From positions 1 to 10,573 of the forward strand of contig JAZLAL010000136.1 of the NCBI GenBank assembly GCA_045613185.1: a DNA stretch of 10,573 nucleotides. The letters are read 5' to 3'. Positions 1-10,573 of the stretch are shown here, piece by piece. Below the pieces are notes generated by a model. The model was not told the origin of the DNA. It did not search any database and saw only the letters and a program-made list of their open reading frames with translations. Position numbers and translations under genes: made by a program. Origin of the DNA: Bacteroidales bacterium (lineage in GTDB: Bacteria; Bacteroidota; Bacteroidia; Bacteroidales; F082). Within the stretch, counting starts at the first letter, position 1. Each line of letters begins with the position of its first letter.

Positions 1-179
1 ATGTGGCTGTGCACTCTCCGTGCATGTACCTCATACTGTTCAAGTGTGGGGCATTGTATCGTTTATTTCAGCTTAGGTCTTTCCACAACCTTCTAACAAA
101 TAAACGTGAAGCAACTCCACACTTTCTTTTTTTTATAAACATTATAATCCTTTGGAGTTGGGGTGTTTGTAAAAATGAT

Positions 180-1280
180 ATGAACATAGTAGATGTTGTC
201 AAATGGGAGGTAAACACAAAAGAATTAGTTCATAAGTTTGAATCAGATTCATTGCGTCTTGGTTCGCAACTTGTTGTTTATCCAAGTCAGACTGCCTTAT
301 TCGTCAAAGGAGGTGTTATCGCTGATGAGTTTCAAAGCGGCACATACACAATAAAATCCGAAAACATTCCGATTCTTGGAAAACTGATAAACATACCTTT
401 CAATAGTGAAAGTCCTTTCAAAGCTGAGGTTTGGTTTGTCAATCAAATATCTAAACTTGACTTAGCATGGGGAACGCCACAACCAATACAAATTGAAGAT
501 CCAAAATACAATATAATTGTACCAATTAGAGCACATGGACAATATGGTATTCGTATAAGTCAGCCAAGATTATTTTTGGAAAGTTTAATTGGCAACATGC
601 ACACTTTTGGACAGGAACAAATAGAACATTATTTCAAAGGAAGAATAATAACCAATCTTAACACTATATTGACCCAACAAATCATAGAGAAAAAAGTTTC
701 TGTTCTTGATATAAATACACAATTGGTATTATTATCAGAAGAATGTAATAATCTGTTAAATATCCAATTGCAAAAATATGGAATAAGCATTATAGACTTC
801 TCTATAATGTCAATAACAGTCCCACAAGATGATGAAAGTGTTATTAAACTTAAAAATGCAAAAGATATCGCAGCTAGATTGAATATTACAGGACGAGATG
901 TATATCAAATGGAACGTTCATTTGACATTCTTGAAAAAGCTGCAGCCAATGAGGGTGTAGGAGGACAGATGATGGGAATGGGTGTAGGATTAGGTGCAGG
1001 GGTTAGCGTTGGAACTACTATAGGAAATATCGCAGGACAAATGATTAACACAACCCCACCACCATTACCTTCACAGGATGTTAAAAAATATTACCTTTAT
1101 ATAAATGGAGAGCAGATACCAAATCTATCATTACAACAAATAGAAGAGTATGTAATAAATGGGGCGGTAACTCACGAAACACTCGCATGGACAATCGGCA
1201 TGTCTGAATGGGCAAAAATATCTGACATACCTGAATTACGCAATCTATTAGGCGGTATTACGCCACCACCTATCAAATAA
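180..1280 (+). CDS. SPFH/Band-7 superfamily protein (Band_7_1-like) with Gly/Met-rich linker and C-terminal DUF4339 (GYF-like) domain
   Basis: The frame is open from nt 3, but the first ATG is at 180 (MNIVDVVKWEV...), and the translation of 3-179 is low-complexity with no coding look. The N-terminal ~260 aa carry the SPFH/Band_7_1 pattern (VxWE...G..L.V.P.Q.A.F.KGG...F..G.Y.I.SENIP.L, AEVWFVN...WGT). The linker is EGVGGQMMGMGVGLGAGVSVGTTIGNIAGQM followed by TTPPPLP. The C-terminal KYYLYINGEQIPNLSLQQIEEYVINGAVTHETLAWTIGMSEWAKISDIPELRNLL matches the DUF4339 consensus (W..GM..W....D.PEL). The stop TAA is at 1278-1280. Confidence 0.75.
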   Translation: MNIVDVVKWEVNTKELVHKFESDSLRLGSQLVVYPSQTALFVKGGVIADEFQSGTYTIKSENIPILGKLINIPFNSESPFKAEVWFVNQISKLDLAWGTPQPIQIEDPKYNIIVPIRAHGQYGIRISQPRLFLESLIGNMHTFGQEQIEHYFKGRIITNLNTILTQQIIEKKVSVLDINTQLVLLSEECNNLLNIQLQKYGISIIDFSIMSITVPQDDESVIKLKNAKDIAARLNITGRDVYQMERSFDILEKAAANEGVGGQMMGMGVGLGAGVSVGTTIGNIAGQMINTTPPPLPSQDVKKYYLYINGEQIPNLSLQQIEEYVINGAVTHETLAWTIGMSEWAKISDIPELRNLLGGITPPPIK

Positions 1281-1286
1281 TAAATT

Positions 1287-1634
1287 ATGAAGGCACTGAC
1301 TTTAAAAATTGGCTTAATAGTACTGATAAGTAATATTATATTTGGCATTCTAATCTCCAAGTATGCTGTATTTAATATATATTTGAATAGTGTGATTATT
1401 GCTATTACAACCGCAATGATTATGTTTGTTAATAGCACAAAGATAAAATCTGCCTTTAAATTTTCATTGTCATTTATATTCATTTTTGGCGGACTTGTTG
1501 AATTTATATGTGGATTATTTTCTAAAAGTTCTATATATGATAATTGGGCAATCCTATTGTGTACAATAATCACTATATTGGAAATAACACTTTTAACTAC
1601 AATAGTATCAATGTCTAAAAACAACAAATCATAA
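1287..1634 (+). CDS. small integral membrane protein (about 4 predicted TM helices)
   Basis: The ATG at 1287 lies 7 nt after the upstream stop, and the TAA at 1632-1634 lies 5 nt before the next ATG, which implies an operon. The translation has four ~20-aa hydrophobic stretches (LKIGLIVLISNIIFGILIS, IYLNSVIIAITTAMIMFV, FKFSLSFIFIFGGLVEFICGLF, WAILLCTIITILEITLLTTIVS). This AT-rich DNA also gives a 151-aa ORF on the opposite strand, so coding status rests on the operon context. Confidence 0.55.
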   Translation: MKALTLKIGLIVLISNIIFGILISKYAVFNIYLNSVIIAITTAMIMFVNSTKIKSAFKFSLSFIFIFGGLVEFICGLFSKSSIYDNWAILLCTIITILEITLLTTIVSMSKNNKS

Positions 1635-1639
1635 TAATT

Positions 1640-2695
1640 ATGAAATCATTAACGTGTGAAATGTGTGGAAGCACCAATCTTATTAAAAATGAAGGTGTCT
1701 TTGTATGTCAGTCTTGCGGAACAAAATATTCTGTAGAAGAAGCAAAAAAAATGATGATAGAAGGAACTGTTAATGTTGAAGGTACTATAAAAATTGACAA
1801 TTCTAATGAGTTACAGAATTTATACGAAATAGCAAGACGAGCAAAAATAACTGATAATATAGAACAAGCAGAAAAGTATTATGACAAAATTCTTGTTTGT
1901 GATCCAAACAGTTGGGAGGCTAATTTCTATACCGTTTATTACAAAGCGATGTCGTGCAAAATAGCAGGTATAGCCAATGCAGGTAACACATTAACACTTT
2001 GCTTGCCCACTGTGATTTATTTGGTGAAGACATATATACCTGAATCGGAACAACATGATATTATTGAAGAAATTTATGGTAAGATTATCAATATCGCTTC
2101 TATGCTTAGTGAAGCTGCAATGAATCATTATTTTGATATTGACATAAGTATCAGGGAAAGATTCGCACAGGATTATGTTAACAACATGGCTTCAGTTACA
2201 TTTTTGGTATATTCTTTAGGAAATATTATTGATGAAAATTGGGGAGCAAAAGAACAGTTTAACTCTGTAGCTTTATGGGATGCTGGTATTGGTTATCAAA
2301 ATAAATATTTTAGATACTTATTAGACCCTTCGCCGACTATAAAATCTATGGAAACGTATGCTGATAAAATAAAAGCATATAATCCAGAATATAAACTTCC
2401 TGAATTAAAAAACACATCATCAGGTGGAGGTTGTTATGTTGCCACTTCCATATATGGTTCTTACGATTGTCCTGAAGTATGGACATTGAGACGATACAGA
2501 GATTATACTCTTGCAGAAAAATGGTATGGAAGAACTTTTATTAAGATATATTACGCAATAAGTCCTACACTTGTCAATTTGTTTGGTGAAACAAGATTAT
2601 TTAAAAAAATATGTAAAGGTAAACTTGACAAATTTGTCAAAAAACTTCAAAGTAACGGGGTGTCTTCAAACCCATATAACGACAGGAATTGGTGA
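1640..2695 (+). CDS. zinc-ribbon protein (CxxC-x13-CxxC) with TPR-like helical region and a conserved C-terminal Cys-containing module
   Basis: The ATG is at 1640. The N-terminus CEMCGSTNLIKNEGVFVCQSCGTKY is a 4-Cys zinc ribbon. The middle region is helical and TPR-like (NLYEIARRAKITDNIEQAEKYYDKILVCDPNSWEANFY). The C-terminus is SSGGGCYVATSIYGSYDCPEVWTLRRYRDYTLAEKWYGRTFIKIYYAISPTLVNLFG, a Cys..ATxxYGS...CPEV..LRxYRD motif followed by a hydrophobic stretch. The stop TGA is at 2693-2695. Confidence 0.75.
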   Translation: MKSLTCEMCGSTNLIKNEGVFVCQSCGTKYSVEEAKKMMIEGTVNVEGTIKIDNSNELQNLYEIARRAKITDNIEQAEKYYDKILVCDPNSWEANFYTVYYKAMSCKIAGIANAGNTLTLCLPTVIYLVKTYIPESEQHDIIEEIYGKIINIASMLSEAAMNHYFDIDISIRERFAQDYVNNMASVTFLVYSLGNIIDENWGAKEQFNSVALWDAGIGYQNKYFRYLLDPSPTIKSMETYADKIKAYNPEYKLPELKNTSSGGGCYVATSIYGSYDCPEVWTLRRYRDYTLAEKWYGRTFIKIYYAISPTLVNLFGETRLFKKICKGKLDKFVKKLQSNGVSSNPYNDRNW

Positions 2696-2782
2696 AACTT
2701 ATCATTTATACCTAAATAACAAGAATGCCATGTTATGATATCATTTTTTTAAAACAAAAATGGCACAAAACACATATATTAC

Positions 2783-2820
2783 AAACAAAGACTCCCGAAA
2801 AATTTCGGGAGTCTTTGTTT
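2783..2820. terminator. bidirectional intrinsic terminator (perfect 18-bp inverted repeat, GC core GACTCCCG/CGGGAGTC)
   Basis: aaacaaagactcccgaaa (2783-2800) is the exact reverse complement of tttcgggagtctttgttt (2803-2820), with loop aa. This gives an A-run then a T-run on both strands. It sits between the convergent + cassette (ends 2695) and the - strand gene whose stop overlaps the arm at 2820-2822. Confidence 0.7.
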
Positions 2821-3929
2821 CACCCTATCATTCTGCTGTCATCAACCTTAAATTTATACATTCCTGTTTCATACGCAATTCGTCCAAGAACAATCCATTT
2901 GTTCATACCTTTTTCTTCCGCCCATACAGTATAGACTTTTTGAATATCTATAGGATTCATACGTACTTTAGGGGCATCCTTCCATTCTTTATTAGGTATC
3001 AACGCATTTGCTGCATACTCGTTTGCTTCTCGTTCTTCAGATCTTTCATTGTCATATTCAGAAATGCTTAACTTGTAATTTTGTTTTGAAGCATCTTTAT
3101 AATGTTTGTATATATGGCCAATCTCATGCATCAACGCAAAAGCAAAACTGTCAATCTTGTTATATCTTCTCGTTAAAATAATATATGGCATTCCATTTTC
3201 AAAATACGAATATCCATCAACCGAAGCCTTGTCTATTTTCTCTATTATACAAAAAGCTATGCCATATTTTGACAATATATTTTTCACTATAGTTTCTGTG
3301 TTTTGGTTTTCATGCAAGGCCTTGCTTAATTCGCTTACCAACATCGGCTCATCATCTCTTACAAATGATCCTTCAACAACAAGCGTCTTTGCTTTTGTTT
3401 CAGCCAATATCTTCCACGTCATCAGCATTCGCATATCTTGCCCTGTCTTCGCTGATTTCTTAAATTTACCAGCATATTCCAATTGCAACTCTGCTGGTTT
3501 AGGAAGTCCACAAATTTCTTTAAGACATCTAAGGTTTTCAACTGCAGATTCTGCCAACATCCCAAGTCTTTTAAGCAATATCTTCACATCAAACACCTCA
3601 TCATAAAGCTTCAATGCATTAAGTGCCTTTTGTTCCTCAACACTTTTTTGCTCTATGACGCTCATGTCATATTCGTATTTAACCTGCATATTCACTAATG
3701 AAATCGCAGAAATACCCAACGTTTCTTCAATCTTAGTAGCAATAAATTTAGTCAGCGTACGCTTTCCTTTTATAAGTTCGCAAACATGACACCTTTGCAT
3801 ACCTATCATTTCAGCAAATTCCTTCTGAGAAATCCCTCTTTCTTCCAACTCATACTTCAATATAGTACCAGGATGAGTCGCTATCCAAGTCGTAGTATTT
3901 TCATTTCTTGTTGCCATAATGATCTTCAT
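2820..3929 (-). CDS. HigA-type HTH (Xre family) antitoxin domain fused to ImmA/IrrE-family (COG2856, Peptidase_M78-like) zinc metallopeptidase domain
   Basis: The N-terminal THPGTILKYELEERGISQKEFAEMIGMQRCHVCELIKGKRTLT matches the HigA antidote HTH pattern (HPGEIL...G.SQ..LA..LGV....I..I..G.R.IT). The C-terminal half has the HEXXH motif in ALMHEIGHIYKH, typical of the ImmA/IrrE peptidase family. ATG starts are possible at 3929 or 3917. The stop is TGA at 2820-2822. It overlaps the upstream higB-like gene by 17-29 nt. Confidence 0.85.
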   Translation of the reverse strand: MKIIMATRNENTTTWIATHPGTILKYELEERGISQKEFAEMIGMQRCHVCELIKGKRTLTKFIATKIEETLGISAISLVNMQVKYEYDMSVIEQKSVEEQKALNALKLYDEVFDVKILLKRLGMLAESAVENLRCLKEICGLPKPAELQLEYAGKFKKSAKTGQDMRMLMTWKILAETKAKTLVVEGSFVRDDEPMLVSELSKALHENQNTETIVKNILSKYGIAFCIIEKIDKASVDGYSYFENGMPYIILTRRYNKIDSFAFALMHEIGHIYKHYKDASKQNYKLSISEYDNERSEEREANEYAANALIPNKEWKDAPKVRMNPIDIQKVYTVWAEEKGMNKWIVLGRIAYETGMYKFKVDDSRMIG

Positions 3930-4224
3930 TTATTTCAATTAGTGAAATCTGTATTCCATCTTCTGTCTCTTTGAACAGCAGCCGCTCAACTCTACCATTG
4001 ATTATTCTTACAGAACTCAACGAAATATATTTCAATTGTTCATAATGTAAAAAACTAAAATCTTTTAACTTAGACACATGCTCCAGAGAACAAAATAAGT
4101 TATATATATGCGTAAGTTTTGTTACGAACTTTTTATCACGAGCAAACTTCTTATATTTTCCCTTATTCTTACCTTTAAAAATAAGTTCTCTCAAATCATC
4201 ATCAAGTATTTCTACCTTCAACAT
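3901..4224 (-). CDS. higB: HigB-like (RelE/ParE superfamily, plasmid-maintenance killer) toxin
   Basis: The C-terminus FLHYEQLKYISLSSVRIINGRVERLLFKETEDGIQISLIEINEDHYG fits the HigB-like_toxin pattern (LH.L.GD..G.WS.RI...WRI.F.......I..IDYH). It sits upstream of, and overlaps, a HigA-type HTH gene. The first in-frame ATG is at 4224; the maximal ORF begins with TTG at 4233. The stop is TGA at 3901-3903. Confidence 0.75.
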   Translation of the reverse strand: MLKVEILDDDLRELIFKGKNKGKYKKFARDKKFVTKLTHIYNLFCSLEHVSKLKDFSFLHYEQLKYISLSSVRIINGRVERLLFKETEDGIQISLIEINEDHYGNKK

Positions 4225-4377
4225 AGATTCCAATAAAATGTTTTTGATTCTGGTGCAAAGTTAAAAATAAATTCCCAATAACATGGAACTTTTTGTTAGT
4301 ATTTTTTAATTACTATTATATTTTCACAAATAAAAGTCTTTTCTACAAATCGACAAAAGACCAATCTATTTTTTTCC

Positions 4378-4385
4378 TAAATTTG
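4378..4385 (+). promoter_or_regulatory. candidate Bacteroidota sigma-A -7 element (TAAATTTG = TAnnTTTG) upstream of rlmN
   Basis: This is an exact match to the Bacteroides-type -7 consensus TAnnTTTG, about 80 nt upstream of the rlmN ATG. I did not find a convincing -33 TTTG. Confidence 0.3.
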
Positions 4386-4465
4386 CACACTTCTCAACGA
4401 AGTTTTTACTGGACAATGACTGTTGTCTGTCGTCCATTGTCTGTTGACCTATAAAAATATAAATC

Positions 4466-5479
4466 ATGAAAGCATTACTCGGTTTAACCTTAGCAGAAAT
4501 ACAGGAAATCGTCAATCAATATGGATTGCCTAAGTTCACAGCCAAACAATTGACTGAATGGCTCTACAAAAAACACACTGGCAGCTTCGATGAAATGACA
4601 AACCTCTCTAAAGCAACACGTCAGCTTCTCTCCGAAAATTATACTACCGGCTACCGTAACTACGAAACCGTACAAGAATCGAAAGACGGAACTAAGAAAT
4701 ATCTCTTCCCTGGCGCAGATAATTTCATCGAATCTGCATATATCCCTGATAAAGAACGTGCTACATTATGCGTCTCTTCTCAAGTGGGCTGCAAAATGAA
4801 CTGCCTCTTCTGTCAGACTGGCAAACAGGGTTTCCAAGAGAATCTTCCTGCTAGCGATATCCTGAACCAAATACTCAACCTTCCTGAATACGAGAAACTT
4901 ACAAACTACGTATTCATGGGAATGGGCGAACCGATGAACAACTACGACAACCTCATGCGCACGCTCAACGTGATGACATCCGACTGGGGTCTCGCCATGA
5001 GTCCAACTCGTATCACAGTGTCGACAGTAGGCGTGATACCTTATATGAAACGTTTCCTCGACGAGTCGAAATGCAACCTCGCTGTCAGCCTCCACTCTCC
5101 TTTCCACGACGAAAGAATGAAAATCATGCCTGTGGAAAAAGCTTATCCAATTCGCGAAGTCATCCACGCTATCCGTCAGCACGACTGGAGCGGACAACGC
5201 CGCGTATTCTTCGAATATATCGTGTTCAAAGGTCTCAACGACACTTCCGACCATATCAAAGAACTCGCAAGACAACTCGGCAGCTTGCGTTGTAAAGTCA
5301 ACCTCATCCGTTTCCACAGCATCCCTGGCATCAACCTTCAAAGTCCGACGATGGACGATATGGAACGCTTCCGCGACAGACTCAACGACAAAGGCATCAT
5401 CGCAACAATCAGAGCATCACGCGGTCAAGACATCGACGCCGCCTGCGGATTGCTATCAACGAAAAATAAATTAGGTTAA
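4466..5479 (+). CDS. rlmN: 23S rRNA (adenine2503-C2)-methyltransferase / tRNA m2A37 methyltransferase RlmN (radical SAM)
   Basis: The length is 337 aa. The radical-SAM CxxxCxxC appears as CKMNCLFCQTG. The protein has the RlmN-type N-terminal (LTLAEIQEIVNQYGLPKFTAKQLTEWLY) and C-terminal (GQDIDAACGLL) signatures. It starts with a clean ATG and ends with TAA. Confidence 0.93.
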   Translation: MKALLGLTLAEIQEIVNQYGLPKFTAKQLTEWLYKKHTGSFDEMTNLSKATRQLLSENYTTGYRNYETVQESKDGTKKYLFPGADNFIESAYIPDKERATLCVSSQVGCKMNCLFCQTGKQGFQENLPASDILNQILNLPEYEKLTNYVFMGMGEPMNNYDNLMRTLNVMTSDWGLAMSPTRITVSTVGVIPYMKRFLDESKCNLAVSLHSPFHDERMKIMPVEKAYPIREVIHAIRQHDWSGQRRVFFEYIVFKGLNDTSDHIKELARQLGSLRCKVNLIRFHSIPGINLQSPTMDDMERFRDRLNDKGIIATIRASRGQDIDAACGLLSTKNKLG

Positions 5480-5486
5480 TATATTT

Positions 5487-5564
5487 GCTGTGAGCAATGG
5501 GCTATGAGCCGTGAGCAATCAAACAGAAATAACTGCTCATGGCTCACATCTCAAAGCTCATAGC
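5487..5564. repeat. long imperfect palindromic element with internal direct repeats (gtgagcaat x2; gctatgagc / gctcatagc inverted)
   Basis: gctatgagc (5501-5509) is the reverse complement of gctcatagc (5556-5564). tgagccgtgagca (5505-5517) pairs with tgctcatggctca (5536-5548) with one mismatch. gtgagcaat is directly repeated at 5490-5498 and 5511-5519. No T-run follows on the + strand. Confidence 0.5.
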
Positions 5565-5587
5565 AAAAAGTTCTTAGTTAATAAAAA

Positions 5588-6316
5588 ATGGCTGATAAAA
5601 ATTTCGTGCGTTCGATGTTCAACAACATCGCTCCTACTTACGACAAACTGAATCATATTCTTTCACTTAACATTGATAAGATTTGGAGGAAGAAAGCCGT
5701 CAAACGCATTTGTAAAAGTCTCAAAGACACAAAGACACAAAGTCTCAAAGTCCAAAACGCTCATGTTCTTGATGTGGCTTGTGGCACTGCTGATTCTAGC
5801 ATCGCTTTGGCAAAGGCCGGAATTCCTTTCGTGACGGGCGTCGACATTTCTGAAGGTATGATTAAAGTTGGTGAAGAAAAAATAAAATCTTTAAACCTCA
5901 ACAACATAAATCTCAAAGTTGAAGATTGCGAAAATCTCAGTTTCGAGGATAATAGTTTCGACTCTGCTTTTATCGCCTTCGGAATAAGAAATTTTGAAGA
6001 CAAGAAAAAAGGATTGAACGAGTTAAGACGCGTCTTGAAAGACAACGGACACCTTCTTATATTAGAACTTTCCGTCCCTCAAAATAAGATTTTGCTTTCA
6101 TTATACAAGTTGTATTTCCTTCATATTCTTCCTTTTATCGGCAAGAAAATCTCTGGCGACAGCAAGGCTTACACTTATCTTCCTAATTCTGTGATGAACT
6201 TTCCAAAACCAAAAGAGTTTATGGCAATAATGGAAGAATGTGGATTCAAGAACGTAAAGCAAAAAGCATTGACATTCGGACTTTGCAGAATTTACGAGGG
6301 ATTTGTGATTAGTTAG
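5588..6316 (+). CDS. menG: demethylmenaquinone / ubiquinone-menaquinone biosynthesis C-methyltransferase (UbiE/MenG family)
   Basis: The N-terminal VRSMFNNIAPTYDKLNHILSLNIDKIWRK matches the UbiE/MenG signature (F..IA..YD..N...S.G....W+). The SAM-binding motif is LDVACGTAD. The length is 242 aa. Confidence 0.88.
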   Translation: MADKNFVRSMFNNIAPTYDKLNHILSLNIDKIWRKKAVKRICKSLKDTKTQSLKVQNAHVLDVACGTADSSIALAKAGIPFVTGVDISEGMIKVGEEKIKSLNLNNINLKVEDCENLSFEDNSFDSAFIAFGIRNFEDKKKGLNELRRVLKDNGHLLILELSVPQNKILLSLYKLYFLHILPFIGKKISGDSKAYTYLPNSVMNFPKPKEFMAIMEECGFKNVKQKALTFGLCRIYEGFVIS

Positions 6317-6323
6317 GAGTTTG

Positions 6324-6483
6324 GAATTAGGAGTTAGGAGTTGTAGAGACGCGTCAATGTATCCTACAAAAATTAATACACATTGACACGTCTAATCAAT
6401 TAAGAATTAGGAATTAAGAGTTGTAGAGACGCGTCAATGTTTCCTGCAAAAATAAATACACATTGACACGTCTATCAAATTAG
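6324..6483. repeat. two tandem ~80-bp direct repeats, each with an internal 14-bp inverted repeat (agacgcgtcaatgt-N19-acattgacacgtct)
   Basis: Unit A (6324-6403) and unit B (6404-6483) are about 90% identical, and a partial third start (gaaattaagaatt) abuts the menA ATG. The inverted-repeat arms are 6347-6360/6380-6393 and 6427-6440/6460-6473. Each left arm carries the palindrome gacgcgtc. Together they fill the entire menG-menA intergenic space. Confidence 0.8.
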
Positions 6484-6495
6484 AAATTAAGAATT

Positions 6496-7377
6496 ATGTT
6501 AAAAAACATTAAGAAATGGTTTGAGATTATCAGGGCAAAGACTTTGTTAGTCTCGATGGCTTCTGTCATCATGGCGATTGCATTGGCTTTTGAAAATGGC
6601 GGAAACAATTGGTTGCCAGCGATTTTATGTTTGTTATTCGCCATATTAGCGCAGGCGACATCGAATGTTGTAAACGATTACGCCGATTACAAAACTGGCT
6701 GCGACAACGAAAACAGTCTCGGTCCTGACAGAAAACTCGTCAGCGGCGAAGTTAGTATCAAAACCATAAAAAGAGCCATAATATTATTAGTCTCAATTTG
6801 TTTCTTAGTCGGATTTAGTTTGATTTATTGGGGCGGATGGATTTTATTGCCATTCGGCTTATTGATAATCGCCGTTGCATTTTGTTATTCATTAGGTCCT
6901 ATTCCATTATCATACAACGCATTAGGCGATATCGCAGTGATATTATTCTTCGGAATTGTTCCAATAACATTCACCTATTATATATTAACAAAAGAAATAA
7001 ACTGGGGAATAATCGCGGCTGGTTTTTCTATGGGACTCGTTGTAGATGAATTACTTATAGTCAACAACGTACGTGACGAGATTGAAGACAAACAATTTAA
7101 TAAAGTCACTACGGTAGGAATTTTCGGAAGCAGATTCATGAAAAAAGTATTTTTATTTAATCCTTTGATTGCTTGCGGATTAGGATTTTATTTCATGAGA
7201 GGCATCTGCGATTACAAAACATGGGCAATCGCGATAATACCAATGCTGATTTATTCAGTCAGCGTTTATATCAAATTGGAAAAATATAAAGGCAAGCAAC
7301 TCAATGCATTATTAGGTCAGGCATCGCTGGAAGCATTGATTTTCGCCTTGACGGTCGTTGCCGTTACATTATTATAA
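6496..7377 (+). CDS. menA: 1,4-dihydroxy-2-naphthoate polyprenyltransferase (UbiA superfamily, MenA)
   Basis: The UbiA-family aspartate-rich motif is NVVNDYADYKTGCD. The 293-aa protein is polytopic, with at least 8 hydrophobic helices. The adjacent menG supports a menaquinone locus. Confidence 0.88.
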   Translation: MLKNIKKWFEIIRAKTLLVSMASVIMAIALAFENGGNNWLPAILCLLFAILAQATSNVVNDYADYKTGCDNENSLGPDRKLVSGEVSIKTIKRAIILLVSICFLVGFSLIYWGGWILLPFGLLIIAVAFCYSLGPIPLSYNALGDIAVILFFGIVPITFTYYILTKEINWGIIAAGFSMGLVVDELLIVNNVRDEIEDKQFNKVTTVGIFGSRFMKKVFLFNPLIACGLGFYFMRGICDYKTWAIAIIPMLIYSVSVYIKLEKYKGKQLNALLGQASLEALIFALTVVAVTLL

Positions 7378-7977
7378 TCATTCGTAAATCTCGGATTCTT
7401 CGACGAGATTATTAAGCAAAGCATAAACAGTAAGACCGGAAACAGATTTGATTCCGGTTTTTTTGACGATATTTTTACGGTGTGTTATGACAGTATGAAC
7501 AGAGATATTAAGCATATCTGATATATCTTTGTTTGTCATACCTTTAGCCACGCAAACCAAGACATCGACCTCACGATTTGACAAGTCGACGCTTTCGTTT
7601 TGAGCAGAAGTCTCTTCGTTATTATTCTGAAGGTTAAGTATTTTATTGATAACCTTCTGCTTATTGTCGTTAAGTTCTATTACTTCCTTAAAATTCTTTA
7701 AGATATTTTTGTCAACGTAAGAAGTTACAAGAGCCACGCGATTTATGTTAGGATAATTTTGCGTCATCTGCTTAGCAAAAGCATTAACCATATAACCCAG
7801 CATCATCGGATTGATTATCAACACATCTGGACTATGCACGATTATTTTATCCTGCAAATCTTCAATATTATCAACGACTGACGCAACAACAATTTGATTC
7901 ATATCATTGAAAAATGAAGACAATCCGTTGCTTATTATCGGCGAGCTTTCTGCTATGATTATCTTTGTGATTTTCAT
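7378..7977 (-). CDS. LuxR/FixJ-family transcriptional regulator with atypical (pseudo-)receiver domain
   Basis: The C-terminal LuxR/GerE HTH is LSNREVDVLVCVAKGMTNKDISDMLNISVHTVITHRKNIV. The N-terminal region has a CheY-like fold, but the acidic pair is ES (IIIAESSPI) and the phospho-acceptor position in VLIINPMM is Asn instead of Asp. The ATG is at 7977. Its stop TGA (7378-7380) directly abuts the menA stop (7375-7377). Confidence 0.85.
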   Translation of the reverse strand: MKITKIIIAESSPIISNGLSSFFNDMNQIVVASVVDNIEDLQDKIIVHSPDVLIINPMMLGYMVNAFAKQMTQNYPNINRVALVTSYVDKNILKNFKEVIELNDNKQKVINKILNLQNNNEETSAQNESVDLSNREVDVLVCVAKGMTNKDISDMLNISVHTVITHRKNIVKKTGIKSVSGLTVYALLNNLVEESEIYE

Positions 7978-7981
7978 AACA

Positions 7982-8632
7982 TTAACCCTCCATCATTTCA
8001 ACAAATGGAACAAGCACGCGTTCTTCCACCAAAGTATGACAGCTCAGGTCGGAAGTCACTTCCATAATGTCGAGAGATATTTCAATTCTCTCTTTTGGGA
8101 AGATATTTGCAGGAAGATATTTGATAAGGATATTCATCAAATCGTTGAGTTTATCTTCGATATTACTATGATTTGACTCAAATTCACGTATTGAGAAATT
8201 AGAAGTCAAAGCATTATTGCACAACGACTTAATATAAGGGAATACTATTTCTTCTTCGTATTTAAAGTGACTTTCCACCTCGTCTTTATATTCATTGAAG
8301 AAGCGATTTATCGTGTTGCCGAATCTAGCAGGACAAGCCTCGACGATACGTTTGAGATGTGATTCGATGTGAGGCAATCTCTCTTCGAGGTAATACTTAT
8401 GAGATTCTGAAAGATAAGACAATATCGCATTTGCATCTACAGACTTGATATCATCTTTGGTAGGAATAAATTCCGGATTGGAGTATAAGTTACAGATTAA
8501 CAGAAAGAACGACGGCGACACTTTAGCTTTTTCGCATACCTCTTTGACATTTTGGTCGCCGAAGCCGAGTTCAATTCCAAATCGTGACAGTGTGAGCATC
8601 AGCGTTGGATTTGAAATCACCAACTCAGCCAT
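7982..8632 (-). CDS. ScdA_N-like plus hemerythrin-like (RIC/YtfE-related) putative di-iron protein
   Basis: The N-terminal MAELVISNPTLMLTLSRFGIELGFGDQNVKEVCEKAKVS resembles the ScdA_N/DUF542 fold, but the GFGD site corresponds to the usual CCGG. The C-terminal half has His/Glu spacing typical of hemerythrin-like proteins (ESHKYYLEERLPHIESHLKRI, ESHFKYEEEI, HSNIEDKLNDL). The start is ambiguous: ATG at 8632 (chosen), ATG at 8671, or TTG at 8695. It lies 4 nt upstream of the regulator gene, implying an operon. Confidence 0.5.
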   Translation of the reverse strand: MAELVISNPTLMLTLSRFGIELGFGDQNVKEVCEKAKVSPSFFLLICNLYSNPEFIPTKDDIKSVDANAILSYLSESHKYYLEERLPHIESHLKRIVEACPARFGNTINRFFNEYKDEVESHFKYEEEIVFPYIKSLCNNALTSNFSIREFESNHSNIEDKLNDLMNILIKYLPANIFPKERIEISLDIMEVTSDLSCHTLVEERVLVPFVEMMEG

Positions 8633-8680
8633 TTTAGTATTTTCAGTAAAAAACAAGTTTGTATAGTTCATAATGTATAA

Positions 8681-8740
8681 TAAAAAATGAGTCAATATTC
8701 TATAAGCTAACGAGTAATACTTATAGACTTATTGACTCAT
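8681..8740 (-). terminator. nested hairpin followed by a T-run on the - strand; probable tRNA-Thr terminator
   Basis: atgagtcaata (8687-8697) is the reverse complement of tattgactcat (8730-8740). The inner pair is tctataag (8699-8706) / cttataga (8720-8727), with a 13-nt loop. On the - strand it is followed by TTTTTATTAT (the + strand 8681-8686 is taaaaa). Confidence 0.55.
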
Positions 8741-8761
8741 AGTCTTATAGTCTTTATTTTG

Positions 8762-8834
<73 letters not shown>

Positions 8835-8843
8835 TTTTTTGAG

Positions 8844-8894
8844 CTAAGAACCTAGAACTCTGAACCAAGAACCAGTTCTTAGTTCTTCGTTCAG
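8844..8894. repeat. imperfect palindrome built from GAAC/GTTC repeats between glnS and tRNA-Thr
   Basis: ctaagaac (8844-8851) is the reverse complement of gttcttag (8875-8882). ctgaaccaagaac (8860-8872) pairs with gttcttcgttcag (8882-8894) with one mismatch. No canonical U-tract follows on the - strand. Confidence 0.4.
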
Positions 8895-8940
8895 GGTCCT
8901 TTGTTCAAGATGCAAAGATACGATTTTTTCTTTTCAGAAA

Positions 8941-10573
8941 TTACTTCTGAGGAAGTTGGAATGTATCTTTTAATGTGACTGTTCTGTTAAATACCAGATG
9001 TTCTGCTGTGCTTTCTTTATCTGCTGTGAAGTAACCTATTCTTTGGAATTGGAAGTGGTCGAGAGGTTTTGCGTCGGCGAGGAATTTCTCTACATAGCAT
9101 TCCTTTCTAATTTCCAATGAGTTAGGATTTATCACTTGTTTCATTGCTTCAAGAGCCGAGCATTGTTGCTCTTCTTGGATAGCAGCGATGGCTTCGCGAG
9201 GATTTTCACTCATCCACAATCTGTCGTACAATCTCACTTCAGCTTGGATGCAATGATCGCAGCTCACCCAGTGCAATGTGCCTTTAACCTTACGGTTTGC
9301 GCCTGCCATACCGCTCTTTGTTTCTGGATCATATTCTGCATGAACCTCAACGATATTGCCGTTTTCGTCTTTCTTGCAATCTTTACATTTCACGATGTAA
9401 GCATTTTTCAAACGTACTTCGTTGCCTGGTGTCATGCGGAAATATTTCTTAGGAGCGTCTTCCATGAAGTCTTCGCGTTCAATCCACAATTCGCGAGAGA
9501 ATGTGATGTTGTGTACGCCTGAGTTTTCATCTTCAGGATTATTGACAGCTTCCATTTCTTCTGACTGGCCTTCTGGATAGTTTGTGATGACGAGTTTCAC
9601 TGGATTGATGACAGCAGAAACGCGTGTTGCGCGAGCATTCAAGTCTTCACGAATTGTGCTTTCCATAAGTGCGAAGTCGTTGACAGCTTCGTATGTTGTG
9701 TAACCGATTTTGTCGATCAATTTATGAATTGACTCTGGAGTGTAGCCACGACGACGGAAACCGCAGATAGTAGGCATTCGAGGGTCATCCCAGCCATTGA
9801 CGAGACCTTCTTTCACGAGGATGAGGAGGTTACGCTTGCTCAACAATGTATAGTTGAAGTTCAATTTATTGAATTCATACTGACGTGGACGATGGTCGTC
9901 GAGGTCTTTTTGTTCTTTAAGTTCGTCGATGAAATAATCATATAAAGGACGGTGAACAACGAACTCGAGAGTACATAAAGAATGAGTAACGCCTTCGAAA
10001 TAATCGCTTTCGCCGTGAGCGAAGTCATACATAGGATAAGCATACCATGTATTTCCTGTGCGGTGATGAGGAGTTTTCACCACGCGATAGATGATAGGGT
10101 CGCGGAAGTGCATATTTGAATTTGCCATATCGATCTTAGCGCGAAGCACCATCTTGCCTTCTTCGATCTCGCCTCTGTTCATCTTTTGGAAAAGTTCCAA
10201 TGACTCTTCAACAGGACGATTGCGATAAGGACTTTCGATGCCAGGAACAGTAGGAGTTCCTTTTTGAGCAGCGATTTCTTCAGAACTTTGCTCATCGATA
10301 TAAGCCTTGCCTTCTTTTATGAGACGAATAGCGAAATCCCAAAGTTGTTGAAAATAATCAGAAGCATAATACTCATTAGCCCATTGGAAACCAAGCCATT
10401 GAATATCTTCTTTAATAGAATCTACATATTCAACGTCTTCTTTTGTTGGATTTGTATCATCGAAACGAAGGTTACAAACACCGTTATATTTCTTTGCAAT
10501 ACCGAAATCCAAGCAGATAGCCTTAGCGTGACCAATGTGAAGATAACCATTTGGTTCTGGAGGGAAACGTGTT
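8941..10573 (-). CDS. glnS: glutamine--tRNA ligase (GlnS), 5' end truncated by window edge
   Basis: The translation continues to the window end. Past the listed Met, the reverse complement of the last bases encodes TRFPPEPNGYLHIGHAKAICLDFGIAKKY, the class I HIGH motif. The protein has strong GlnS/GlxRS hallmarks throughout (VLRAKIDMANSNMHFRDPIIYR, the MSK-type region VKGTLHWVS). The stop TAA is at 8941-8943. Confidence 0.93.
   Translation of the reverse strand, partial: TRFPPEPNGYLHIGHAKAICLDFGIAKKYNGVCNLRFDDTNPTKEDVEYVDSIKEDIQWLGFQWANEYYASDYFQQLWDFAIRLIKEGKAYIDEQSSEEIAAQKGTPTVPGIESPYRNRPVEESLELFQKMNRGEIEEGKMVLRAKIDMANSNMHFRDPIIYRVVKTPHHRTGNTWYAYPMYDFAHGESDYFEGVTHSLCTLEFVVHRPLYDYFIDELKEQKDLDDHRPRQYEFNKLNFNYTLLSKRNLLILVKEGLVNGWDDPRMPTICGFRRRGYTPESIHKLIDKIGYTTYEAVNDFALMESTIREDLNARATRVSAVINPVKLVITNYPEGQSEEMEAVNNPEDENSGVHNITFSRELWIEREDFMEDAPKKYFRMTPGNEVRLKNAYIVKCKDCKKDENGNIVEVHAEYDPETKSGMAGANRKVKGTLHWVSCDHCIQAEVRLYDRLWMSENPREAIAAIQEEQQCSALEAMKQVINPNSLEIRKECYVEKFLADAKPLDHFQFQRIGYFTADKESTAEHLVFNRTVTLKDTFQLPQK

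Follow-up and report, generated by a model that had tools for sequence, protein, structure and literature searches.

Introduction

In the GTAG superfamily of repetitive extragenic palindromes (REPs), an unpaired 5' GTAG precedes a stem-loop. The sections of the survey by Di Nocera, De Gregorio & Rocco (2013, PMC3733652) on which we draw describe sub-families that differ by complementary stem changes, G.T-type stem positions, singletons alongside inverted dimers and head-to-tail groups, a location mostly in unidirectional or convergent spacers, occasional in-frame intragenic copies, and genes for REP-associated tyrosine transposases (RAYTs) that are flanked by repeats. In those sections, the GTAG type is recorded from Proteobacteria, Cyanobacteria, Chloroflexi, and the PVC group, whereas for Bacteroidetes only CGTC REPs are given. 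Here we analyze a 10,573-nt stretch of DNA from a Bacteroidales bacterium (assembly GCA_045613185.1, contig JAZLAL010000136.1, positions 1 to 10,573), called the window below, in which two tandem 80-nt repeats lie between menG and menA. These repeats are very probably a head-to-tail pair of GTAG-type REPs belonging to a clade-wide dispersed family with a RAYT partner, and the family shares each of the features of structure and arrangement listed above.

The REPs of Escherichia coli, mostly inverted pairs (bacterial interspersed mosaic elements, BIMEs), likewise have a GTAG head and an imperfect palindrome with a conserved irregularity, here a two-base bulge (AA/GC), and the HUH/Tyr gene for TnpA-REP (structure 4ER8) is flanked by REP doublets in a "REPtron" (PMC3333891, PMC3479197, PMC8266576). 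Strand-specific recognition of single-stranded DNA (ssDNA) that needs both GTAG and the stem irregularities has been established for TnpA-REP (PMC8266576, PMC3479197), and restoring perfect pairing at the conserved bulge abolished activity (PMC8266576). Binding and cleavage of the GTAG-strand ssDNA hairpin have been established with the enzymes of E. coli, S. maltophilia, and M. aquaeolei (PMC8266576). In the classification of Quentin et al. 2018, TnpA-REP subclasses 2.4 (RAYT group 4) and 2.6 (group 5) have NH[IFV]H, WQ, and YIxNN-like motifs, a length of ~180-195 aa, hosts among Bacteroidetes and Cyanobacteria, and "long" REPs, and REPs within their own tnpA-REP gene were reported as unique to subclass 2.4 (PMC6006769).

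Two GTAG hairpins between menG and menA

Tandem Repeats Finder reported a sole array in this region, at 6324-6496 (period 80, 2.2 copies, 89% matches, score 274), and a direct-repeat search returned the same repeat. A first-pass annotation of the window, made from its letters, had described two tandem 80-bp repeats of about 90% identity filling the menG-menA gap, and that description held: the units are 89% identical and occupy the 179 nt between the two open reading frames (ORFs). Each has the form AGACGCGTCAATGT-N19-ACATTGACACGTCT, and the 14-bp inverted repeat with a 19-nt gap that was noted at first pass has arms that are 93% complementary. What that description lacked is the diagnostic feature, a GTAG directly 5' of each hairpin. 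The units and the elements within them are as follows.

6324-6403, + strand: tandem unit 1, 80 nt (heptamer block, GTAG, hairpin, 3' spacer; Tandem Repeats Finder period 80, direct-repeat family D1)
6343-6393, + strand: REP copy 1 (GTAG 6343-6346; 5' arm AGACGCGTCAATGT 6347-6360; A-rich 19-nt loop 6361-6379; 3' arm ACATTGACACGTCT 6380-6393)
6404-6483, + strand: tandem unit 2, 80 nt, head-to-tail with unit 1
6423-6473, + strand: REP copy 2 (GTAG 6423-6426; 5' arm 6427-6440; loop 6441-6459; 3' arm 6460-6473)

The one non-Watson-Crick position of the stem sets C6352 opposite A6388 in copy 1 and C6432 opposite A6468 in copy 2. The strand asymmetry pointed out at first pass is real in both copies, with C.A on the + strand and G.U on the - strand. 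RNA folding energies (copy 1/copy 2) were -15.5/-15.3 kcal/mol on the + strand and -22.3/-20.3 on the - strand, and the corresponding ssDNA values were -9.6/-9.5 and -11.6/-11.7 (hairpin z-scores -4.3 to -5.9 across RNA and ssDNA folds). The whole 179-nt spacer also folded better than its shuffles on both strands (z -3.5 on +, -6.4 on -). A covariance model of the family scored copy 1 at 74.6 bits (+) and 31.7 (-) and copy 2 at 75.4 (+) and 31.8 (-), and found just these two copies in the whole window, where the arm motif at ≤3 mismatches occurred 4 times vs 0.68 expected from shuffles. With two units, an inter-repeat sequence that is itself repeated, and no cas-like ORF in the window, the array is not a CRISPR, which agrees with the first-pass annotation.

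A dispersed family in ruminant-gut Bacteroidales

A scan of one genome per bacterial species with the pattern AGACGYGTCAATGT-N10-30-ACATTGACRCGTCT (exact arms) found at least 109 stretches in about 30 metagenome-assembled genomes (MAGs), with 12-15 coming from single MAGs. Among the stretches listed, all but one are from ruminant-gut Bacteroidales MAGs, labeled Candidatus Limimorpha, "Lentimicrobiaceae" SIG104-106, or unnamed Bacteroidales, and the window DNA is 90-94% identical to parts of family-bearing MAGs. To judge from these assemblies, the hosts are a clade of uncultured ruminant-gut Bacteroidales made up of Candidatus Limimorpha and its relatives. The miniature repeat family that had been one suggestion at first pass is therefore borne out by the number of copies and by REP/RAYT anatomy with a partner gene. 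One locus binned as Methanobrevibacter sp. (L051, JAZNRM010000162.1, 2477 nt; locus numbers are ours) has two head-to-tail REPs and AATTAGG heptamers and is probably mis-binned.

Family members consist of a 5'-GTAG followed by a 14-bp stem, in which a single non-Watson-Crick position is conserved, and an A-rich loop of 14-24 nt. GTAG was invariant across an alignment of 110 distinct copies (A3) and, under relaxed matching, stood in exact form on exactly one side of 152 of the 166 good hairpins, most of the others having one-base variants. The loops are A-rich on the GTAG strand and mutually related, with a consensus of roughly (T/A)(A/T)CCTGCAAAAATAAACAC. At 47-58 nt, elements fall outside the 20-40 nt, short-loop size that is typical but not defining for REPs, and they differ from those in the consulted sections of PMC3733652, where stems have 6-13 bp and most loops 2-4 nt.

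Stem pairing in A3 showed double-sided changes at 6 of the 14 pairs (39 cells vs 11.3 in shuffles) and a covariation score of 0.102 vs 0.035, with 0/500 shuffles as high. Paired cells made up 93% in the real structure vs 17-55% in slid controls, a percentage inflated by the pre-selection of copies for at least 12/14 Watson-Crick pairs, which does not inflate the double-sided changes. The stem thus appears to be kept by selection on pairing, and the covariation makes no distinction between a DNA and an RNA hairpin. Stem pair 6 was C.A in 96 copies, T.G in 9, and Watson-Crick in 4 (n = 110); non-Watson-Crick combinations were found in 106/110 distinct copies, and 119/121 exact copies shared the asymmetric position. 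Because a minority subfamily has T.G on the GTAG strand, the conserved trait is a wobble-type irregularity on that strand and not a strand-particular G.U pair. This single C.A or T.G position differs from the two-base bulge of E. coli, and the need for that bulge would readily account for the conservation of position 6 in the Bacteroidales family.

Copies are mainly extragenic (137/152 outside crude ORF calls), and 116/152 are singletons, unlike the mostly inverted pairs of E. coli. Seven further head-to-tail pairs were found at five loci, and tail-to-tail doublets with a fixed 31-nt spacer, which also flank the RAYT gene, at 11 places. The latter resemble REPIN-RAYT systems, which Bertels and Rainey reportedly described in 2011 as REP doublets that form hairpins. 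Given that the window pair runs head-to-tail, not inverted, and that singletons make up most of the family, doublets are one unit among others and perhaps not the main one.

Some copies lie in frame inside long ORFs, all in sense orientation, and are translated as (S/G)RDASMxPxxKHIDTS; heptamer arrays beside them are likewise translated. The insert in the U32 peptidase lies in the linker between the Peptidase_U32 and DUF3656 domains. Rickettsia palindromic elements (RPEs), as cited in the consulted part of PMC3733652, are similar in having in-frame translated copies. They are longer, unrelated in sequence, and of CGTC type or no type, and the window copies, in contrast, are intergenic. The in-frame copies are as follows.

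L017:5250-5292, L018:3591-3633, L068:1174-1216, L072:2206-2248, L092:69-111: in-frame REPs in a U32 peptidase
L087:1244-1286, L089:7734-7776: in-frame REPs in a GH20 protein
L015:1804-1846: in-frame REP in a further long ORF

A RAYT-like gene flanked by the hairpins

Two loci carry a RAYT-like ORF with a GTAG-hairpin doublet on both sides, each doublet consisting of GTAG-hairpin, a 31-nt spacer, and an inverted hairpin-CTAC.

L104:4427-4960: RAYT-like ORF, 177 aa
L090:173-775: RAYT-like ORF, 200 aa

The sole NCBIfam match of the protein was NF047646, "REP-associated tyrosine transposase" (E 3e-14). A phmmer search of a single RAYT-like protein against the PDB gave nothing relevant and a profile search was needed; with a 39-sequence family profile, the best PDB match was 4ER8, E. 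coli TnpA-REP (E 1.6e-5). The alignment set VVMPNHVHLI against VVLPEHMHCI (the HUH, PNHIH segment) and WQxRFHDRIIR...YIxxN against WQPRFWEHAIR...YIYIN. An AlphaFold model (pLDDT 80, pTM 0.76) had 4er8_A as its best Foldseek match (E 3e-7), followed by the ISDra2, IS608, and IS200 transposases; the Bacteroidales protein is only ~17% identical to TnpA-REP. PNHIH and Y163-x3-N167 are invariant, placing an Asn at +4 from the catalytic Tyr (YIEQN). A tblastn search with E. coli RayT as query had given weak matches only (E 0.2-0.5); these served as a lead, which the NCBIfam, profile, and Foldseek results bore out independently.

There were 3339 homologs in the protein collection, several of them JGI-named "REP element-mobilizing transposase RayT", and many were on contigs of ~1 kb. 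Among the closest metagenome homologs (58-67% identity), three are flanked by family hairpins (L110, L111, L113) and three by GTAGAGACG-headed arm-variant repeats, some without a scored hairpin (L112, L114, L115). Homologs at ~45% identity are flanked or interrupted by compact 28-nt GTAGAGACG..CGTCTCTAC palindromes, e.g. GTAGAGACGTGCCATGGCGCGTCTCTAC, and those of L116, L117, and L121-L123 have T.G/C.A at the matching place after GAGACG. Palindromes inside the RAYT-like genes were seen at L116:2787-2841, L117:905-989, L119:2793-2865, L120:647-719, L121:596-650, L122:2769-2823, and L123:1026-1080.

Both the searches and the model indicate that the flanked protein is an HUH/Y1 enzyme of the TnpA-REP (RAYT) type. 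At seven loci, an HUH/Tyr gene whose product best matches TnpA-REP lies between family hairpins or close arm variants of them, and it is for this reason that we read the family as GTAG-type REPs with a RAYT partner. The motifs (NH[IV]H, WQ, and Y-x3-N), size, host phylum, and within-gene REPs, the last matched by the distant homologs L116, L117, and L119-L123, fit subclass 2.4 or possibly 2.6 (PMC6006769). This placement is by motif and context, with a Tyr motif in the Bacteroidales family of YI(E/K)(Q/N)NI and not ...NNP. At L104, the sequence 3' of the doublet that precedes the RAYT gene (4351-4375, ggatttttaacattttttaa...) recurs after the downstream doublet, at the contig end (5146-5165), so that the entire RAYT unit may be tandemly repeated, or else the assembly may have broken within repeats.

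Orthologous menG-menA spacers

The coding and repeat context of the pair within the window is as follows.

5588-6316, + strand: UbiE/MenG-family methyltransferase ORF (PF01209, E 2.4e-61), the upstream neighbor
6311-6342, + strand: upstream heptamer array AGTTAGG/AATTAGG, ~4.6 copies, abutting the GTAG of copy 1
6394-6422, + strand: junction block between the two REPs, with a downstream-like start (ATCAATTAAG AATTAGG AATTAAGA) and an upstream-like end (GTT before GTAG)
6474-6495, + strand: downstream heptamer-like block (ATCAAATTAGA AATTAAG AATT), up to the menA start codon at 6496
6496-7377, + strand: ORF for UbiA-family MenA, 1,4-dihydroxy-2-naphthoate octaprenyltransferase (PF01040 and named homologs), the downstream neighbor
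7378-7977: LuxR/GerE-type response regulator gene, adjacent to menA

Three relatives (L096, L065, L076) have one REP in the menG-menA spacer and a variable number of upstream AGTTAGG heptamers. They were found by the exact-arm requirement, and arm conservation there is not counted as evidence of selection. A second sample of orthologs, taken via MenA protein homologs, gave the following.

L150: MenA 97% identical; one copy with a broken arm (GTAGAGAAGCG...)
L151: MenA 91%; no REP, same rlmN-menG-menA-luxR-hemerythrin order, TTCATAA/TGCATAA heptamers
L152: MenA 85%; no REP, same menG-menA-luxR-hemerythrin order, TTCATAA/TGCATAA heptamers
L153: MenA 81%; no REP, same gene order, TTCATAA/TGCATAA heptamers
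L154: MenA 80%; no REP, same gene order, TTCATAA/TGCATAA heptamers
L155-L159, more distant: MenA 75-69%; no REP

The element is polymorphic and dispensable at menG-menA, because in relatives whose gene order is unchanged the spacer may hold a single copy, a decayed one, or no copy at all. Among the orthologs compared, the 80-nt duplication is confined to the window's strain. Relatives without the duplication in an unchanged menA context had been named at first pass as grounds for doubting a function of the repeats, and such relatives exist; a lack of compensatory changes had been named as well, and here the outcome is the opposite, as those changes are present.

The REP-less spacers of L151-L154 are 61-120 nt long. 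Spacers with and without a REP have almost no sequence in common, the former carrying AGTTAGG/AATTAGG arrays and the latter TTCATAA/TGCATAA arrays, which therefore points to wholesale spacer replacement and not to simple interruption. About 100 nt around the window REPs resembles the non-orthologous loci L058, L025, L028, and L016. The most probable source of the duplication itself is unequal recombination or replication slippage involving the heptamer arrays that flank the REP, since the junction block (6394-6422) is a chimera of the downstream and upstream blocks. The loop of unit 2 is nearer than that of unit 1 to the single copy in relatives.

Heptamer arrays

Tandem arrays of 6-9-nt units, mostly heptamers, are pervasive in this lineage, with 514 in 786 kb (loci L001-L109), and recall the cyanobacterial STRR heptamers, on which a literature search gave nothing useful. 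The units vary by locus (AATTAGG, AATTGAA, AATTCAT, AGTCGCA, and others), and copy number varies between orthologous spacers. We considered heptamers as a general part of the element and rejected this, as such arrays are frequent in REP-less intergenic spacers (140/291) and lie within 40 nt of just 62/152 REPs. In the AATTAGG-flanked subfamily they may nevertheless be part of the element, given the ~100-nt similarity to L058, L025, L028, and L016.

The heptamer arrays of the window are at 6311-6342, 6398-6419, 8719-8754, and 8846-8892. The last contains an AAGAACC array (8846-8874) and an AGTTCTT array (8874-8892), which are near reverse complements beside a tRNA gene at 8762-8834 (-) and, from their sequence, could form a long hairpin next to it.

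Orientation bias and a possible role in RNA

Orientation was counted with crude ORF calls after collapsing orthologous sites into 64 clusters. The GTAG strand was the sense strand at 36/38 independent sites between co-directional genes (binomial p 5e-9), and the five intragenic clusters were all sense; the few antisense copies are doublet partners. A further 12 sites were convergent and 3 divergent, the background spacers being 357 unidirectional, 87 convergent, and 80 divergent. Relative to that background, elements are overrepresented in spacers of the first two kinds and underrepresented in divergent ones, and their median distance from the upstream stop codon is 23 nt. This near-exclusive sense orientation of singletons is a feature of the Bacteroidales family that has no counterpart in the consulted sections of PMC3733652. 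The bias appears local, because non-adjacent genes were co-oriented just 142 vs 128, and replication strand is an insufficient explanation for it: the difference in GC skew at third codon positions was small (-0.164 vs -0.101, p 0.009) and may be confounded.

One alternative, which leaves a REP origin intact, is that the hairpins were co-opted as sense RNA elements, 3'-UTR or intercistronic stem-loops serving the stability of the upstream mRNA, attenuation of read-through, or tuning of downstream translation, in which case the doubled copy would alter the menG:menA expression ratio. The sense bias and its local character, the short distance after stop codons, and the depletion between divergent genes all favor such a role, as does a covarying stem, which fits a DNA hairpin equally well. 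E. coli REPs affect mRNA stability and attenuation (PMC3333891, in the portion used here), and many GTAG REPs are argued to act as RNA in the consulted sections of Di Nocera et al. (PMC3733652). Since the GTAG (C.A) strand is the sense strand, however, the elements would, if transcribed, be read as the weaker C.A hairpin, at -15 vs -20 to -22 kcal/mol, and selection on RNA would favor G.U or a Watson-Crick pair. There is also no U-tract after the stems, which are followed by AATCAA and ATCAAA on the + strand and CTACAA on the - strand, and hence no intrinsic terminator. Relatives keep the same operon entirely without the element, and the check for a structured RNA suggested at first pass, here a search of the complete window against Rfam 15 with E values up to 1, gave no match in 6317-6495. 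We regard co-option as RNA as possible and unlikely.

We are still more doubtful, though not dismissive, of a specific cause for the bias, namely that the GTAG strand inserts into non-template ssDNA in a manner coupled to transcription or R-loops, or that a C.A-weakened hairpin has a domesticated role in mRNA. The domesticated role would concern the mRNAs of Shine-Dalgarno-poor Bacteroidales, and what both options address is a bias that follows the neighboring genes rather than the replication strand at large. To our knowledge, transcription- or R-loop-coupled ssDNA transposition has been proposed and never shown for TnpA-REP. R-loop ssDNA is one suggested substrate for the enzyme in the portion of PMC3333891 used here. 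Selection against the stronger hairpin or a U-rich loop in mRNAs is a further possibility. If true, either insertion into non-template ssDNA or the domesticated role would make the family a natural system for testing REP site choice.

Other readings of the repeats

Miniature inverted-repeat transposable elements (MITEs), or palindrome-associated transposable elements (PATEs) derived from IS200/IS605 and moved by a true insertion-sequence transposase in place of a domesticated RAYT, would also be short, non-coding, and dispersed with 14-nt inverted arms, and the flanked gene belongs to the Y1/HUH superfamily of IS200 TnpA, with the TnpA of ISDra2 and IS608 as next-best folds. We found no target-site duplication or bracketing direct repeat visible around the copies, however, and no tnpB-like gene alongside the RAYT-like ORFs (L104, L090). 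GTAG stands on a single side, which makes the ends asymmetric. Four positions beyond its catalytic Tyr the protein carries an Asn, as RAYTs do, in place of the Gln of the IS200 type, and it best matches TnpA-REP in both sequence and fold. This origin is improbable.

The first-pass annotation had read the strand asymmetry as a hint of an RNA function antisense to menG/menA, that is, a small or structured RNA from the - strand using perfect, G.U-containing 14-bp stems. As RNA, the - strand hairpins are 5-7 kcal/mol more stable, the spacer as a whole folds best on that strand, and copy 2 has one promoter-like sequence there.

6447-6479, - strand: match to the Bacteroidetes-type promoter consensus TTTG-N21-TAnnTTTG, in copy 2, on the strand opposite GTAG

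The full match occurs in 1/149 family elements, and the -7 box alone in 16/149; being unique, it is probably due to chance, and an outward promoter as a family-wide feature was rejected. The asymmetry is inherited family-wide with the C.A strand as sense, one subfamily instead carries T.G on its GTAG strand, the element is missing from orthologous spacers, and Rfam gave no match, so that an antisense RNA is highly improbable.

Operators for a dimeric regulator of menA, such as the LuxR/GerE-type protein at 7378-7977, were also proposed at first pass and are barely credible: each arm contains the palindrome GACGCGTC, and menA is immediately preceded by the two sites, which are evenly spaced, and has a GerE-domain gene adjacent, but the sequence recurs at more than 100 unrelated loci, beside dozens of unrelated genes and sometimes within coding regions, compensatory arm changes preserve the hairpin and not a duplex recognition sequence, four relatives keep the menG-menA-luxR-hemerythrin synteny without any copy, and neither a mismatch that is conserved nor a GTAG present on one side alone would serve any purpose in a duplex operator.

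Other features of the window

Within the menG coding sequence, an octamer array of AAAGTCAC (5.4 copies, 5715-5756) encodes KSLKDTKTQSLKVQ just ahead of the S-adenosylmethionine (SAM)-binding motif VLDVACGT and is kept in L096 and L109. An ORF at 2820-3929 (-) encodes both an HTH_3 (XRE) and an IrrE/M78 peptidase domain, and the genes upstream of it (an SPFH/Band-7 protein with GYF_2 and a zinc-ribbon protein) have the look of an accessory region. A weak, sub-threshold rimP-leader match lies at 2753-2844.

Discussion

The GTAG head, the covarying stem with its conserved irregularity, and the doublet-flanked RAYT-like gene carry our reading of the window units as REPs, and several observations weigh against it. 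The 51-nt elements, 14-bp stems, and 19-nt loops exceed classical REPs of 20-40 nt; we do not treat this as excluding membership because the consulted sections of PMC3733652 include long REPs whose loops reach 27 nt. The RAYT-like proteins fall below curated cut-offs (NCBIfam 53 vs 80 bits, Pfam Y1_Tnp 19 vs 23), no RAYT match was found within the 10.6-kb window, and the gene was seen in just 2 of ~30 sampled genomes within the 8-kb blocks examined. The 36:2 sense orientation is unpredicted by a purely selfish model alone. Finally, the two window copies have identical arms and yet 3 loop differences, which means either that the arms are constrained or that copy 1 is a separate second insertion rather than the product of a simple recent duplication.

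By analogy with E. coli TnpA-REP and the TnpA of IS200/IS605, the GTAG strand would fold as ssDNA, and the RAYT would recognize that strand specifically through the GTAG head and the stem irregularity, then cleave and rejoin it, spreading, reshuffling, or maintaining copies. At menG-menA, some members of the lineage have a single REP in the spacer, and in the window's strain the REP and its spacer were probably duplicated with an 80-nt period. Neither menG nor menA needs the element, which would be carried passively between the cistrons in the sense orientation typical of the family.

As far as the consulted sections go, GTAG REPs, RAYTs, intragenic REPs, and G.T stem positions have already been described (PMC3733652, PMC2817692), as have the Bacteroidetes RAYT subclasses (PMC6006769). 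What is unusual in the Bacteroidales family is its long stems and loops, orientation bias, in-frame intragenic copies, and pervasive heptamer arrays. For annotation, the 80-nt repeats are to be labeled as REP elements and not as a menaquinone-specific regulatory site, a small RNA, or an operator. The same label applies to hundreds of intergenic hairpins, spurious short ORFs, and "RDASM..HIDTS" insertions in ruminant-gut Bacteroidales MAGs. Assemblies, too, are interrupted at the repeats and RAYT genes, as the many ~1-kb RAYT contigs indicate. GTAG REPs with a RAYT have been documented mostly in Proteobacteria and Cyanobacteria, and a well-populated family can now be added from uncultured Bacteroidales, in which the wobble-type stem position and the transcription-linked orientation bias are directly testable determinants of RAYT recognition and site choice.

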